64,000 bases of DNA from Clostridia bacterium (GTDB lineage: Bacteria; Bacillota; Clostridia; Christensenellales; Borkfalkiaceae), in contig JAIDSX010000064.1 in NCBI GenBank assembly GCA_029060985.1, positions 1,838-65,837 on the forward strand. Reading direction: 5' to 3'. Made by a program: the position numbers and the translations under genes. This document shows, piece by piece, positions 390 to 63,931 of this stretch; within the stretch, counting starts at the first letter, position 1; each line of letters begins with the position of its first letter. The notes beneath the pieces were generated by a model that did not search any database, was not told the DNA's origin, and was given only the letters and a program-made list of their open reading frames with translations.

Positions 390-413
390 AATAAATTCTT
401 CCGTGCCCAAAAT

Positions 414-442
414 ATTATATTAGCGTGACGGTACTTTGTCAA
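414..442 (-). promoter_or_regulatory. Consensus sigma-A type promoter for the permease gene
   Basis: On the minus strand: TTGACA (442-437), a 17-nt spacer, TATAAT (419-414), 25 nt upstream of the ATG at 389. Confidence 0.6.
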
Positions 443-461: not shown

Positions 462-519
462 TGTGGATAACTATGTGGATAACTTAGAATTTTGTGGATA
501 ACTCCCCTCATTATCCACA
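462..519. promoter_or_regulatory. Cluster of four perfect DnaA boxes
   Basis: tgtggataa at 462-470, 474-482 and 493-501, and ttatccaca at 511-519. All are exact matches to the TTATCCACA consensus: three in one orientation and one inverted, within 58 bp. Confidence 0.8.
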
Positions 520-20450: not shown

Positions 20451-20480
20451 ACGCGCGCACGCGTGCGCGCACGCGCGCGT
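20451..20480 (-). promoter_or_regulatory. 30-nt strictly alternating purine-pyrimidine GC tract / stable hairpin in the gyrB 5' leader
   Basis: acgcgcgcacgcgtgcgcgcacgcgcgcgt is (RY)15. As RNA it folds into a 12-bp stem with a 6-nt loop, extended by the flanking ATTTCT/AGAAAT arms (20445-20489). It ends 2 nt from the GGAGG SD (20438-20442). Confidence 0.6.
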
Positions 20481-20554: not shown

Positions 20555-20611
20555 TGTGGAAAAATTTTTGGAATTTTCCACCAAAAAATAAAAGTTTTCC
20601 ACTGTGGAAAA
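20555..20611. promoter_or_regulatory. Four degenerate DnaA-box-like TTTTCCAC(A) motifs; the last two form the dus terminator palindrome
   Basis: tgtggaaaa 20555-20563, ttttccacc 20574-20582, ttttccact 20595-20603, tgtggaaaa 20603-20611. Each has 1-2 mismatches to TTATCCACA. Confidence 0.35.
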
Positions 20612-56053: not shown

Positions 56054-57070
56054 TCAACTTTCGGAAACGTTTACATAAGCGCCGTTATCGGCGTCCTGAA
56101 ATACGATATAAAATCCTTTCTCGTCCGAAAAAGGAGATTCGGGTACGAAGGTGCAGTGCTCCTTCATTTCTTCGGGCGGATCGCCGTTCTTCTCCGCCGC
56201 CACGCACAGATAGCGGGGCAATCCGTTTTCGTACACCACGCCCAAAAGCGCGTTCTCCGTTTTCACCCATTCGGAGCGCGGGAATACCTTCATGAGCCGC
56301 GTGTCGGTCGGAAACTTCTGAAAAGCGCGTTCGAGCTCCTCTCTCACTTTTTTATAATATGTAAGTTTTCCTTTCGTGCGGAGGAAAGGGTTGACAGCGT
56401 TATCATCTTCTTTAAGATTGCCTCCGCCCTTCTTTTTTCGTCCTTTTCCTTCACCTTTGCCCGCAGTATTTTCATTCCGATCGCCTTCTTGTACGCGCTC
56501 GTAGAAGTAGTCGCTTTCAGCAATCGCCTCGTCGTCGTAAGCGACCGCTCCTTCCCGAAAGGGAGCCCTGTCATTGGGCTCCTCCTTAGAGGGGAAATCG
56601 GGCAGGGGAACGGTGGGCGCGCGGGGTACGTTCGGCGCAAGCGGCGGGAACTCCACGGGCGGTACCGGTATGGGGATCGCGGGCACGTCCCCCTTCTTTT
56701 CCGTTTCGGTGAGATAGCTAAGCAATTCTTTGTCGCTCAAAGCGGAGCTTCCGCAACGCCCGAACGCGACGGGTTTTGCGCCGTCTTTGATAAAGGCGAC
56801 GAGCACGGAGAAGCCGTCCTTGATCGACGGCGCGTCGGCAATTTTCAGAGGCTCGCTTCCGTCGAGAGCAAGACAAAATCTTTTGTCTCCCACCGCGAGT
56901 ACGACGGCGTACCGCCCCTCCTTCACAAAGGCAAGTCCCGCCGCCTGGACCTTTATCGTCAATTCCCTTCCGAAGCGTTCCAAGTAGACCGCTCCCGAAA
57001 GCGCGCTCCCGTCTGCGGAGAATCCCTTATTTATTTGCTTTAATACCGCAACTCTTTTTTCGTAAGACAT
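56054..57070 (-). CDS. Hypothetical protein (two globular ends joined by a Pro-rich / charged linker)
   Basis: 338 aa from ATG 57070 (MSYEKRVAVLKQINKGFSADG...). No family recognised. It is the last minus-strand gene before the strand switch. Confidence 0.55.
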   Translation of the reverse strand: MSYEKRVAVLKQINKGFSADGSALSGAVYLERFGRELTIKVQAAGLAFVKEGRYAVVLAVGDKRFCLALDGSEPLKIADAPSIKDGFSVLVAFIKDGAKPVAFGRCGSSALSDKELLSYLTETEKKGDVPAIPIPVPPVEFPPLAPNVPRAPTVPLPDFPSKEEPNDRAPFREGAVAYDDEAIAESDYFYERVQEGDRNENTAGKGEGKGRKKKGGGNLKEDDNAVNPFLRTKGKLTYYKKVREELERAFQKFPTDTRLMKVFPRSEWVKTENALLGVVYENGLPRYLCVAAEKNGDPPEEMKEHCTFVPESPFSDEKGFYIVFQDADNGAYVNVSES

Positions 57071-57199
57071 AAAACTCCTTTCGGGCAACGCCCGCGTTCG
57101 TATTTTTTTCATCATAAAACTTTTGAACGGGAAAAACCGCTCGCACTTCGTCGAAAAATTTCCCTTTTGCGCGAATTTATTCTTCACCCCGCCAATCCC

Positions 57200-57228
57200 T
57201 TGAAATTGCTTTTCGTTTGTGCTATAAT
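57200..57228 (+). promoter_or_regulatory. Near-consensus extended -10 promoter for rsmG
   Basis: TTGAAA (57200-57205), a 17-nt spacer ending in TGc, TATAAT (57223-57228). The rsmG ATG begins only 6 nt downstream. Confidence 0.6.
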
Positions 57229-57234
57229 AAACTC

Positions 57235-57927
57235 ATGTTACTTTCGATCGAGCCCGCCCGCTATCTGAATATCATAAACGGCGAAAAGAAAGCGCTCTTT
57301 GAAAAATATTTCGCGCTCCTTACGGAATACAACGCCCGCTTTAATCTGACGGCGATCACGAAAAAGGAAGAGGTTTTCGAAAAGCATTTTTTAGACAGCG
57401 TCCTGGGCGAAAGCCTGTTCCCCGAAAACGCAAGCGTTTTGGAAGTGGGGTCGGGCGCGGGCTTCCCCTCTCTCCCTCTTAAAATTCTGCGGGACGATCT
57501 TTCGTTCACGCTCGTCGAGAGTACGGGAAAGAAGTGTGAATTTTTGAAGGTCGCAGTAAAGGAGCTTTCCCTTTCGGGCGTTACAATCTTAAACGAGCGG
57601 GCGGAAACGCTTGCACGCGATTCCCTCTACCGTGAAAAATTCGACGTTTGTTGCGCACGTGCGGTGGCGCGCATGAATACGCTCTCGGAATACTGCCTGC
57701 CTTTTGTGAAGACAGGCGGGGCGTTCGTCGCCTATAAGGGGGACGCGGACGAAGAACTCAAAGAAGCGGAAAACGCGATCAAAAAATTAGGCGGAAAAAC
57801 TGCCCTTTCCTACCGTTATTCCCTGCCGAATCACGGCGTGCGGACATTGATCAAAATCGATAAAATCAAACAAACGCCTGCTCTCTATCCGCGCGGACAG
57901 GGAAAGGAGAGGAAAAACCCGCTATGA
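57235..57927 (+). CDS. rsmG: 16S rRNA (guanine527-N7)-methyltransferase
   Basis: 230 aa. NLTAITKKEEVFEKHFLDS and LEVGSGAGFPSLPLKI motifs. ATG 57235 is preferred over the track's TTG 57217, which lies inside the promoter. Confidence 0.9.
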   Translation: MLLSIEPARYLNIINGEKKALFEKYFALLTEYNARFNLTAITKKEEVFEKHFLDSVLGESLFPENASVLEVGSGAGFPSLPLKILRDDLSFTLVESTGKKCEFLKVAVKELSLSGVTILNERAETLARDSLYREKFDVCCARAVARMNTLSEYCLPFVKTGGAFVAYKGDADEELKEAENAIKKLGGKTALSYRYSLPNHGVRTLIKIDKIKQTPALYPRGQGKERKNPL

Positions 57928-58379
57928 GTTTTTCTTGCGCGCTGACGGGGCACAGAGTTTTACCGAAGGACTTCAATGAAAAAAAACTTTCGGAAGAACT
58001 CGAACTTCTTATCATTTCGGGATATACCTACTTTTACTGCGGCATGGCGGAGGGCTTCGATCTTCGCGCTTTGAAAGTACTTATCGACCTTAAAAAACAA
58101 TATTCCATCAAAATCGAGGCTTGCGTTCCGTACAGAGGACAGGAAAAAAAGTTTTCCGCCGAAATGAAAACGCTTTATAAAAGTCTGATCAACGCGTGTG
58201 ACGAAAGGACGGTTTTTTTCGAAAAGTACACGGACGGCTGTTATTTACTGCGTAACCGCTATATGGTGGAAAAATCCGACTGCGTCTACGCCTACTGCAC
58301 GCGGGAAACGGGAGGAACTGCCTACACCGTCCGCTACGCAAAAAGCAAGGGAAAATCAATCGTTCGCGCCCTTTTATAG
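57924..58379 (+). CDS. SLOG-family protein (DUF1273, YpsA-like)
   Basis: 151 aa. TGHR, GMAEGFDLRA, LLRNRYMVEKSD and GGTAYTVRYAKSKGKSI match the DUF1273 pattern. ATGA overlap with rsmG. Confidence 0.75.
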   Translation: MSFSCALTGHRVLPKDFNEKKLSEELELLIISGYTYFYCGMAEGFDLRALKVLIDLKKQYSIKIEACVPYRGQEKKFSAEMKTLYKSLINACDERTVFFEKYTDGCYLLRNRYMVEKSDCVYAYCTRETGGTAYTVRYAKSKGKSIVRALL

Positions 58380-58397
58380 GGATAACTTCTTTGAAAT

Positions 58398-58620
58398 TGT
58401 GGACAAGCGTGGATATCTTTCATTTATAAACAGCCTGTCCACAGGTTTATACACGGCTTATCCACAAATTAAAGCGTGTAAATTGCGTAAAACTTCTACA
58501 AAACGGTTGAGTTTTTGAGCCTTTTTCGCTATAATATATAAGGTATATGAAACTTGTCCACCTTTCCACAGTACCTATTACTAATAATACTACTAAATAA
58601 ATTCTTTTATATAAATCACC
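58398..58620. other. Putative oriC core: DnaA boxes, DnaA-trio-like triplet array and AT-rich unwinding element
   Basis: Boxes at 58398-58406, 58408-58416, 58435-58443, 58447-58455, 58458-58466 (perfect ttatccaca), and a tandem pair at 58554-58570. In-phase CTA TTA CTA ATA ATA CTA CTA at 58575-58595, then aaataaattcttttatataaatc. Coincides with the coding-strand switch. Confidence 0.6.
58507..58535 (+). promoter_or_regulatory. Putative dnaN promoter inside the origin region
   Basis: TTGAGT (58507-58512), a 17-nt spacer, TATAAT (58530-58535). Confidence 0.5.
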
Positions 58621-58675
58621 TCTTCCTGAAAAGAGGCGCGAAAAACAAAAGGAAATTCATTCAAGGAGAAAGGTT

Positions 58676-59776
58676 ATGAGATTTAATTGCAACGGATTGA
58701 CGTTGGCGGAAGCCGTACTCAAAGTGAGCAAGGCTTGCGCCGTAAGAACAACGGCTCCCGTAATGGAGTGCATCAAAATTACGGCGACGAGCGACGGAAT
58801 TTCCCTTCTTGCAACGGACGGAGAGCTTTCGATCGAAAAGAAGCTCAACGCGGAAGTTTTGGAAGAGGGCGCGGTGTGTATCCCCGGAAAGCTCTTTTCC
58901 GATTTCATCAGTAAACTTTCGGGCGAGGAGATCGACGTCTCCACGGGAGAAAAGGGCGTTGCAATTTCTTACCGCGATTCCAAATCCTATATGCAGGCGA
59001 TCTCGGCGGACGAGTTCCCCTCCATCAATCTCAACGCGGGTGAAAACAGCTTCGTTTTAAGACAGAGCGCGTTCAAGCAAATCGTTGCGGAGACGGTGTT
59101 CTGCTGTGCGCAGGACGATTCCCGTCCCGTTCTCAAAGGCTGTTTGATGGAGCTTGACGAAACCTTGAAGGTGACGGCGCTCGACGGTTACCGCCTTGCC
59201 TTCTCCGAAACCTCGATTTTATCCAAGAGCGGGGAAAAGAGCATGATCTGTCCCGCAAGAACGCTCAACGAAATAGCAAAGATGCTCAACGGGGAAGAGG
59301 ACGAAGAAGTGACCCTCTACGAAGAGGGCGGCCAGCTTCTCGTGAAATCGGAGGGAACGACGATCGTCTCCCGCCTGTACCGCGGCGACTTTATCAAGCG
59401 CGAAAACGTGATTCCCACGCGCTTTTCGACTTACGTTACGATCAACAAGAGCGAACTTACGGCAAGTGCGGAGCGTGCGGCGATCCTTATCCGCGGGGAC
59501 AAAAACAATCTCGTCACCCTTGAAATTTCTTCGGAAAAATTGAAGATCTCCTCCGTTTCCGATTACGGAACGGTTGCCGAGACCCTGAACGCGGAGACGG
59601 ACGGCGTAGACCTCACGATCTCCATGAACGCAAAATATCTTCTCGACGCGCTGCGGGCACTAAGGGAAGAGCGCGTGACCATTTCGTTCAGCGGTGCGAT
59701 TTCCCCCTTTATTCTGCAAAATCAGGAAAAGAAAGACAGTTTGTATCTGATATTGCCCGTCAAGAACGCGTCGTAA
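58676..59776 (+). CDS. dnaN: DNA polymerase III beta sliding clamp
   Basis: 366 aa with the three-domain clamp pattern (MRFNCNGLTLAEAV..., VTALDGYRLA, LILPVKN). AAGGAGAAAGG SD. Confidence 0.95.
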   Translation: MRFNCNGLTLAEAVLKVSKACAVRTTAPVMECIKITATSDGISLLATDGELSIEKKLNAEVLEEGAVCIPGKLFSDFISKLSGEEIDVSTGEKGVAISYRDSKSYMQAISADEFPSINLNAGENSFVLRQSAFKQIVAETVFCCAQDDSRPVLKGCLMELDETLKVTALDGYRLAFSETSILSKSGEKSMICPARTLNEIAKMLNGEEDEEVTLYEEGGQLLVKSEGTTIVSRLYRGDFIKRENVIPTRFSTYVTINKSELTASAERAAILIRGDKNNLVTLEISSEKLKISSVSDYGTVAETLNAETDGVDLTISMNAKYLLDALRALREERVTISFSGAISPFILQNQEKKDSLYLILPVKNAS

Positions 59777-59863: not shown

Positions 59864-59998
59864 ATGAAAAGAACCTATCAGCCGAAAAAGAGACAGAGAA
59901 GCAAAGTTCACGGCTTCCGCAAGCGCATGAAGACGACGGGCGGAAGAAACGTCATCAAGCGCCGCAGGAACAAGGGCAGAAAACACGTTTCCGCATAA
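59864..59998 (+). CDS. rpmH: 50S ribosomal protein L34
   Basis: 44 aa: [52 protein letters not shown]. Too short for the ORF track. Confidence 0.95.
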
Positions 59999-63184: not shown

Positions 63185-63931
63185 TTATTTCATTACCTGC
63201 ATTTCTTCCAAAATGCCGTATGTGTTTTTATATGGTATGATCGTTATTGTTTTCTTTTCCTGCATGAACTTCGTTTCCCTGTGGGTAAACCAAGAATACG
63301 ACCACTTTTCTTTTGTTTCGCCTTTATCGTCAATATACCTTACTTTAATGTAGCTGACTATAAAGCTCCGAGCGTTTATAACTTCGCCTTCTTTGGGCAA
63401 TTTACCGCACCTGTCAATTCTACTATCTAAAAACATCGGATAAACAGCAAATTTTACAAAAGTGAGTATTGCAAACGGCGAAAGGCAAGTAAACACAATA
63501 GCGCAAGTCAAAAACTCTTTATAATGAAATCCGTTGGTACGGATTTCCGATTTGGATTTATTAACCGCCCAATTACTATTGGGATCAACCGTCACTGTGA
63601 ATTTTTTTCCAATAGATTGCATAACGGTTTCTTTGCTGAGATATCCGGACACACCTTTATAAACCCTATTGTTATAATGGCATTCCCAAATATAATACCA
63701 CCCCGAAGTACCAACGGAATCATCATCGATACGAATTTCGGAATCATAATCATAATCAACAGCAGTAGCTTCTAACTCGACGCCGTTTTCTAAAATATAT
63801 TCATATCGGAACTCATTACGATAAAACAACCAAAACACGATTGTGGCAACTATTACCGCAAAGTTAATTATTATAAAAATCGGTAAAATCCAACTTTTGT
63901 CTTTTCTTATTCCGATAGGCTTAACTTTCAT
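63185..63931 (-). CDS. Hypothetical membrane protein (TM - beta-rich domain - TM - beta-rich domain; DUF3592-like guess) in an AT-rich segment
   Basis: 248 aa. TM at ILPIFIIINFAVIVATIVFWLF and a second at CAIVFTCLSPFAILTFV. Composition is clearly AT-richer than the rest of the window. Confidence 0.5.
   Translation of the reverse strand: MKVKPIGIRKDKSWILPIFIIINFAVIVATIVFWLFYRNEFRYEYILENGVELEATAVDYDYDSEIRIDDDSVGTSGWYYIWECHYNNRVYKGVSGYLSKETVMQSIGKKFTVTVDPNSNWAVNKSKSEIRTNGFHYKEFLTCAIVFTCLSPFAILTFVKFAVYPMFLDSRIDRCGKLPKEGEVINARSFIVSYIKVRYIDDKGETKEKWSYSWFTHRETKFMQEKKTITIIPYKNTYGILEEMQVMK

Follow-up and report, generated by a model that had tools for sequence, protein, structure and literature searches.

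A DnaA-box/DnaA-trio module upstream of dnaN, without an adjacent dnaA, as the probable replication origin of an uncultured Clostridial lineage

The spacer between dnaA and dnaN of Bacillus subtilis reportedly (Richardson 2016) holds a basal unwinding system (BUS) made up of DnaA boxes 6 and 7, DnaA-trios and an AT-rich element. To our knowledge, linkage of dnaA to dnaN is the rule among spore-forming Firmicutes. The origin of Synechococcus elongatus, by contrast, is presumably located directly upstream of dnaN with dnaA elsewhere, and E. coli oriC is distant from dnaA, with flanking transcription playing a role. Here we describe a 64-kb stretch of contig JAIDSX010000064.1 from a Clostridia bacterium (the window, 64,000 nucleotides), in which a module of the same kind, at 58398–58620, lies directly upstream of dnaN and dnaA is absent from the neighbourhood, the pattern of a dnaN-linked origin without an adjacent dnaA. 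The element is very likely the unwinding module of the chromosomal replication origin (oriC), as the preliminary description of this DNA had proposed. We consider the case strong because the GC skew and the coding strand both switch here, and because the module is conserved among relatives and unique in its surroundings. The mechanism is very probably an ordinary one, set in a gene context that is uncommon for a Firmicute and shared by a whole lineage.

In B. subtilis incC, boxes 1–5 occupy the 101 bp upstream of box 6; this distal subregion raises the local DnaA concentration, and boxes 6/7 are where filament growth on the trios is nucleated (PMC6669920). A BUS is predicted for 85% of bacterial origins, and that of S. 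elongatus has been tested (PMC8287927). According to the rules given there, the best box has at most two mismatches to TTATCCACA and its tandem partner at most four, the spacer between the first box and the first trio is at most 16 bp (most commonly 13), and at least three consecutive trios of the form 3'-NAN-5' follow, GAT being preferred especially close to the boxes (PMC8287927). Origins outside the dnaA context are well known (PMC4285127). E. coli oriC is found between gidA (mnmG)/gidB (rsmG) and mioC; its gidA–mioC position is given in PMC10225481, and another gene context in PMC4285127.

The gap before dnaN in the window is ~300 bases long and the module takes up ~225 bp of it (Table 1). 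A direct reading of 58200–58800 placed the boxes, promoter, tandem pair, seven NTA triplets and AT-rich run exactly where the preliminary description had them, and added one distal box that was absent from its list. The arrangement has the order, polarity and scale of B. subtilis incC: distal boxes, a proximal tandem pair, a ~4-nt spacer, an AT-rich tract and then dnaN. As in incC, the upstream proximal box is the one closer to consensus, and trios of the 3'-GAT-5' type stand opposite the sense strand of the boxes. The distal boxes lie 88–156 bp upstream of the proximal pair, so that distal and proximal subregions followed by trios form an incC-like organisation. On the bottom strand, the trio array reads 3'-GAT AAT GAT TAT TAT GAT GAT-5', with a central A in all seven. 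The A+T content reaches 83% over 58575–58620 and 85% over 58580–58619, compared with 45–75% in the spacer's remaining 20-nt steps and about 48% across the entire window. Unlike incC, the module has neither an upstream dnaA nor a second box cluster, contains a consensus promoter, and is preceded by rsmG/SLOG.

Table 1. Coordinates of the module and of the genes on either side of it (positions in the window; mismatches are to the DnaA box).
Feature	Position	Strand	Basis or remark
rsmG–YpsA/SLOG block, a local inversion compared with the divergent arrangement usual in the clade	57217–58379	+	Synteny and skew
rsmG	57217–57927	+	Pfam
YpsA/SLOG	57924–58379	+	Pfam
Distal DnaA-box cluster, six 9-mers	58398–58466	mixed	Mismatch scan; part of the window's densest box cluster
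Distal box tgtggacaa	58398–58406	-	1 mismatch
Distal box cgtggatat	58408–58416	-	2 mismatches
Additional distal box TTATAAACA	58424	+	2 mismatches
Distal box ctgtccaca	58435–58443	+	2 mismatches
Distal box ttatacacg	58447–58455	+	2 mismatches
Distal box ttatccaca	58458–58466	+	Perfect
Predicted promoter TTGAGT-17-TATAAT, between distal and proximal boxes, towards dnaN	58507–58535	+	Sigma-70-type; promoter scan, 10/12 matches
Proximal tandem box TTGTCCACC (ttgtccacc)	58554–58562	+	2 mismatches; one base in common with the next box
Proximal tandem box CTTTCCACA (ctttccaca)	58562–58570	+	2 mismatches
Spacer GTAC, 4 nt, proximal box to first trio	58571–58574		Direct reading
DnaA-trio array, seven triplets	58575–58595	-	Top strand CTA TTA CTA ATA ATA CTA CTA
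AT-rich tract, presumed DNA unwinding element, continuing from the trios	58596–58620		A+T profile
dnaN, beta clamp, 366 aa	58676–59776	+	Pfam, all three beta-clamp domains

Set against the published BUS rules, the best box, TTGTCCACC, and its partner, CTTTCCACA, have two mismatches each; 12 nt (58563–58574, the second box plus the 4-nt gap) separate the first box from the first trio; and the seven trios begin with a GAT and include four of them. By its letters the element agrees with every sequence rule and appears to be a canonical DnaA-box/DnaA-trio unwinding module. In such a module, DnaA would bind the distal cluster and the proximal tandem boxes, an ATP-DnaA filament would extend from the proximal pair onto the 3'-GAT/AAT-5' trios of the bottom strand, and the filament would stretch the duplex and melt it on into the neighbouring AT-rich tract, the site of helicase loading. 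The earlier idea of a bipartite oriC collapsed to ~230 bp finds no support: layout and size are normal for the module of a dnaA–dnaN spacer, the Clostridial spacers of loci L087–L090 being 268–293 bp long. Compared with the canonical arrangement, only dnaA itself and a box cluster on its upstream side are absent.

A side observation concerns the dnaN leader just past the AT-rich tract, which contains a hairpin with a 9-bp stem, CACCTCTTCC-TGAA-AAGAGGCG (58617–58638). The scan scores it as a terminator-like element of the minus strand, on which no gene terminates here, and it is limited to the closest relatives (L001, L003–L005).

Other Clostridial dnaA–dnaN spacers (L080, L081, L087–L090) are among the closest known counterparts, and with them we group the origin unwinding region of C. 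difficile (PMC7561715). These spacers carry a near-identical motif, TCCACA-nnnCCAC-ccc-CTACTA/TTATTA followed by AT-rich sequence, directly upstream of dnaN; the module and its polarity are the same in L080 and L087–L090 and more degenerate in L081. Unlike the window, these spacers follow dnaA and have no embedded promoter (0/6). The likeness to S. elongatus is one of linkage, namely an origin linked to dnaN and unlinked to dnaA, with a BUS present; the difference is one of phylum and of downstream genes, which in the window are rpmH-rnpA-yidD-yidC-jag in a spore-forming Firmicute, marked as such by SpoVT and SipL. The resemblance to E. coli oriC is one of context only: it too is unlinked to dnaA, has a gid-family flank (rsmG is gidB) and involves flanking or embedded transcription. 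Unlike the window, it consists of left and right DnaA subcomplexes, IHF and 13-mers and has no linkage to dnaN.

Scans of the window place the features of the module far beyond what chance would give. DnaA boxes with at most one mismatch number 20, against 6.8 expected, and the densest stretch (58371–58570, 200 nt) has nine boxes with at most two mismatches, on a background of 0.61 per 200 nt (Poisson P(≥7) = 3.8e-6). The trio array is the only run of at least four in-phase NTA triplets on either strand of the window, and a run of at least seven arose in 5e-5 of spacer shuffles. The next DnaA-box clusters of the window are at 42.3, 20.6 and 0.5 kb; those at 462–519 and 20555–20611 have no trios.

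To place the module in its lineage, the DnaN of the window was scanned against one genome per species, giving 80 loci, all from metagenome-assembled genomes (MAGs) of uncultured Clostridia labelled Christensenella, Christensenellaceae, 'Candidatus Coproplasma' or plain Clostridia. Only the two most distant loci, L080 and L081 (DnaN 29% identical), have dnaA directly upstream of dnaN. In the other 78, whose DnaN is 43–92% identical, dnaA is missing from the fetched flanks and the string dnaN-rpmH-rnpA-yidD-yidC-jag is essentially universal. The absence of dnaA beside dnaN is a property of the whole lineage. The neighbourhood had been called broken, which is correct in that dnaA and recF are absent nearby, but the trait is common to 78 relatives and not peculiar to one genome.

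The rsmG–SLOG pair shows how the surroundings of the module have moved. In 69 of the 78 loci it lies on the opposite strand and diverges from dnaN, across a spacer of about 350–450 bp. It is on the plus strand only in the window, the near-identical contig L001 and L003–L007, and has moved to a place after jag in L039 and L043. The plus-strand placement is thus a small local inversion limited to the closest relatives, and the earlier remark that rsmG sits upstream of the origin applies, with rsmG on the strand of dnaN, to these few loci; elsewhere rsmG mostly points away. In both situations, inversion and relocation, the module stays with dnaN, and a box scan of the other inversion junction, 57071–57234, gave no box cluster. 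The history suggested by this pattern is that the module stayed attached to dnaN when dnaA was no longer upstream, where there is now mostly rsmG, transcribed away from dnaN.

Upstream of dnaN the relatives follow a common plan: distal boxes, a TTGnnn-17-TATAAT promoter, the tandem pair, a ~4-nt gap, the trio run, an A+T-rich tract and a ribosome-binding site. The distal clusters occupy the same position, the tandem pair is typically TTGTCCACA and then nnnCCACA, and the trio run is, for example, TTATTATTACTATTATTA or CTACTAATACTACTA. With a strict detector (tandem boxes plus at least four perfect NTA triplets), 35 of 79 loci had the module upstream of dnaN, and there were three matches elsewhere in 2.8 Mb, all three of which are also between rsmG and dnaN, with an insertion parting them from dnaN. 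The strict version misses single phase slips and second boxes of the CAAC type, and conservation was therefore judged from a relaxed detector, visual inspection and an alignment (A1). The relaxed detector found 46 of 79 loci against one background match, with a gap of exactly 4 nt between proximal box and first trio in 41 of the 46. By eye, the loci missed by the detectors mostly have shifted, phase-slipped, imperfect or CAAC-type versions.

Among the 23 sequences of A1, four of which are canonical dnaA–dnaN spacers, none deviates in the T, T and A of the upstream proximal box or in the TA of trios 1, 2, 3 and 5; the TA of trio 4 is at least 90% conserved. These data bear on the thought that the element is a relic of a former dnaA–dnaN origin that no longer fires, in a genome whose skew and strand bias have not yet re-equilibrated. 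The loss of dnaA from the site and the rearranged neighbourhood would suit a relic. Yet boxes and trios have kept invariant positions even where DnaN identity has dropped to 43–50%, which implies long-term purifying selection, and the skew polarity is kept in nearly all genomes (see below). We find a relic hardly credible.

Three related loci depart from the usual position. In L049, L050 and L073, at about 8.6–9.5 kb in locus coordinates, the box–trio module is beside rsmG, 0.5–1.4 kb upstream of dnaN. In L073 the stretch immediately before dnaN resembles coding sequence, and an inserted gene may part the origin module from dnaN there. In six others (L010, L012, L020, L060, L074 and L076) the distal boxes recur as TGTCGATAA, one base off the DnaA box and similar to TGTCGAA, the core of the Spo0A '0A box'. 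As the hosts carry sporulation genes, dual DnaA/Spo0A sites at the origin are conceivable. The low-GC Clostridial lineages of L087–L092 have rearranged the origin neighbourhood differently: dnaA–dnaN is followed mostly by Lactamase_B-fold and radical-SAM genes, a DnaC/IstB-like ATPase is often nearby, and there is no rpmH cluster beside dnaA.

The strand composition of the window switches at the module. GC skew is negative over 1–57 kb and positive from 58 kb. On a 74-kb composite of the window and contig L085, the cumulative G-C curve descends to about -2000, reaches its lowest point at 57,346, is flat over 57.0–58.7 kb and then rises steadily to -1668 across 15 kb rightward. The minimum is at 57.3 kb rather than in the spacer because the rsmG–SLOG block is inverted locally: the block itself has a skew of +0.023 and the minimum falls at its left edge, which is the pattern that a recent in-place inversion next to an origin would produce. 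Since plus-strand genes far to the left on the composite keep a negative skew, the signal is not purely an effect of transcription. In the 59 related loci that offer 4 kb or more of flank in both directions, the mean skew is -0.036 to the left and +0.046 to the right, and the right exceeds the left in 56. The module is thereby found where a BUS is expected, at the skew switch, in the window, on the composite and in these 56 relatives.

The coding strand flips at the same place. About 38–41 of the ~49 genes to the left are on the minus strand, and the next six, from dnaN to jag, are on the plus strand. Earlier counts of 42 of 48 on the minus strand and then eight on the plus had captured a real flip and were roughly right for the left side; the run to the right is six genes on our map. 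As had also been noted, dnaN is the first gene of the co-directional string dnaN-rpmH-rnpA-yidD-yidC-jag. Pfam identified rnpA, yidD, yidC and jag, and rpmH (59864–59998) was assigned from its translation, from tblastn across the loci and from a PF00468 match on the identical gene in L001. The gyrBA genes are at 15.9–20.4 kb on the minus strand. Two minus-strand genes near the origin, 56054–57070 (338 aa) and 63185–63931 (248 aa, after jag), have no Pfam or NCBIfam match; the 338-aa gene keeps its origin-proximal place in much of the lineage, the gene order being PEPCK, unknown gene, SLOG, rsmG.

No DnaA was detected by six-frame tblastn in the window, even at E ≤ 10, or by tblastn in the 78 related dnaN loci, with up to 10 kb fetched on each side. 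The queries were an E. coli DnaA sequence (validated in Pfam at 252 bits to Bac_DnaA) and the Clostridial DnaA proteins of L080 and L081, and DnaA was recovered in these two loci as positive controls. Nor did any open reading frame (ORF) of at least 300 aa in the window match a RecF/SMC-type family, and so the statement that the 64 kb contain no DnaA- or RecF-like ORF stands. Two minus-strand ORFs upstream of gyrBA had suggestive sizes; the one of 444 aa, DnaA-like in length, is a polysaccharide/MurJ-type flippase by Pfam, and the one of 369 aa, of RecF/DnaN-like length, is MazG. Overlapping public contigs widen the view by ~2.4 kb to the left (L083) and 10 kb to the right (L001/L085). The left extension, which ends after two genes, has an ArsB/CitMHS permease and one more gene, and the right one has DUF1256, CvpA, FtsH, ParA, ParB, an unknown gene and an ABC permease; dnaA is in neither. 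Counted from the spacer, the gene is thus absent over 58 kb (plus about 2.4 kb) leftward and about 15 kb rightward.

Plausibly, dnaA has been relocated elsewhere in the genome. The dnaA of the lineage was sought by a protein search seeded with the low-GC Clostridial DnaA of L081, the matches of which were clustered. Six representatives were examined among the 120 DnaA matches listed (P0047, P0061, P0026, P0057, P0096 and P0117), and all six were rejected, being members of canonical dnaA–dnaN pairs of other lineages; in the four cases compared, the DnaN beside them is 29–33% identical to that of the window. All 120 matches listed have a low-GC amino-acid composition, unlike the proteins of the window. 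A literature search for Christensenell* together with dnaA found nothing on the origin or on the placement of dnaA.

Of the marks of a bipartite oriC, the incC-like internal organisation is present (see above) and two others were not found: there is no DnaA in the window or the 78 loci that could stand between two box clusters, and the box scan of the window gave no second cluster within a few kb. It might still be argued that the spacer is only the unwinding half of a split origin, which needs a remote box cluster, either beside a relocated dnaA or, for instance, at 462–519. A bipartite layout around dnaA is what Firmicute origins have shown to date (PMC6669920; for C. difficile, PMC7561715), and other box clusters of high quality do exist in the window. 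However, neither visual inspection nor box scanning of the 78 loci revealed a second cluster within 10 kb, and a partner at least 58 kb away would be unprecedented. The spacer also has a distal box subregion of its own, the equivalent of which in B. subtilis supplies local concentration within incC (PMC6669920). A split origin is accordingly improbable.

The cluster at 462–519 deserves a description of its own. It consists of four perfect TTATCCACA boxes in 58 bp, three on the minus and one on the plus strand, and has the best box quality of the window. It is directly upstream of a TTGACA-17-TATAAT promoter (about 409–437, minus strand) that serves a minus-strand gene of the ArsB/CitMHS permease type, running off the left edge of the window just past the mreB terminator. 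The identity of this gene rules out a dnaA promoter, and the cluster is probably a DnaA-regulated promoter or a DnaA-titrating cluster.

A more prosaic explanation is that the spacer is only a DnaA-controlled promoter region of the dnaN operon and that the real origin is elsewhere, beside an unlinked dnaA. Box clusters of regulatory appearance occur elsewhere in the window (462–519 with its promoter, and the boxes upstream of gyrB), and B. subtilis has such DnaA-box clusters outside oriC (PMC3245932). Regulation, however, has no need of a trio array and an AT-rich tract at a fixed 4-nt spacing, a combination that is unique to the spacer in 2.8 Mb. The element also matches dnaA–dnaN spacers, which hold the origin unwinding site in B. 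subtilis (PMC6669920), and both GC skew and coding strand switch at the spacer in nearly all relatives. We therefore judge a purely regulatory role highly improbable.

Several points nevertheless weigh against assigning oriC to the spacer. The strong conserved promoter halfway through the element is also consistent with simple control of dnaN by DnaA. Two mismatches are present in five of the seven boxes of the preliminary description, and box quality is higher at 462–519, with four perfect boxes 58 kb from the spacer. Three of the seven trios (ATA, ATA and TTA) differ from GAT at the first position. The skew curve covers the 74-kb composite, only 15 kb of it to the right of the site. Finally, the L081-seeded protein search did not locate the dnaA of the lineage, and a second site with boxes and an unwinding element beside that gene is formally possible.

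The promoter itself sets the lineage apart. An equivalent (at least 9/12 positions) is found in 60 of 77 clade loci, with a 17-nt spacing in 55 and TATAAT in 54, on a background of 0.126 per 450 nt, and most of the remaining clade loci have a weaker TTGCAT-17-TATTAT version. In contrast, all six canonical dnaA–dnaN spacers lack the embedded TTGnnn-17-TATAAT promoter. Judged by these matches, a promoter between distal and proximal boxes is a feature of the lineage that is absent from canonical spacers. Transcription from it is predicted to begin around 58542, some 10 nt before the proximal boxes. Possibly dnaN, when it was no longer co-transcribed from dnaA, gained a promoter of its own within oriC. 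The promoter would drive dnaN, and probably also the downstream rpmH–jag string, through the unwinding site; DnaA on the proximal boxes could repress the dnaN string, and transcription could cross the trios and the AT tract. A bolder and rather doubtful proposal is that the spacer of this Christensenellales-like lineage is a self-contained, monopartite 'natural minimal incC' that works without a linked dnaA and has captured the dnaN–jag promoter. Expression of the clamp, RNase P and YidC would then be under direct control of DnaA occupancy at the proximal boxes and trios, and transcription would help to open the origin. If true, initiation and clamp supply would have a built-in reciprocal coupling.

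An origin of the textbook DnaA-box/DnaA-trio type leaves the understanding of initiation unchanged, and its value is practical and comparative. It allows a confident origin assignment for a large group of uncultured gut Clostridia represented almost exclusively by MAGs. Here dnaA does not mark the origin, and a coordinate zero or an origin inferred from dnaA could be misplaced. Methods that could be affected include the rotation of assemblies to dnaA, origin predictors that give weight to dnaA and growth-rate estimates based on coverage; an example of the practice is Christensenella minuta, for which dnaA is reported and was used for genome rotation (PMC11636353). The lineage also offers a natural case in which the module of a dnaA–dnaN spacer survives without dnaA or a second cluster and with a lineage-specific embedded promoter, and could help, by comparison, to tell which components a Firmicute origin can do without.

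Two minor observations concern gyrB, a gene known to respond to supercoiling. Immediately upstream of its promoter region, at 20555–20611, there are boxes of the TTTTCCACA type, including an inverted pair, TTTTCCACAGTGGAAAA. The gyrB leader (20451–20480, minus strand) contains a perfectly alternating purine–pyrimidine, near-palindromic tract of 30 nt, ACGCGCGCGTGCGCGCACGCGTGCGCGCGT, between the promoter region and the ribosome-binding site. The tract is prone to form Z-DNA and cruciforms, which is suggestive of a tie to the supercoiling response of gyrB.

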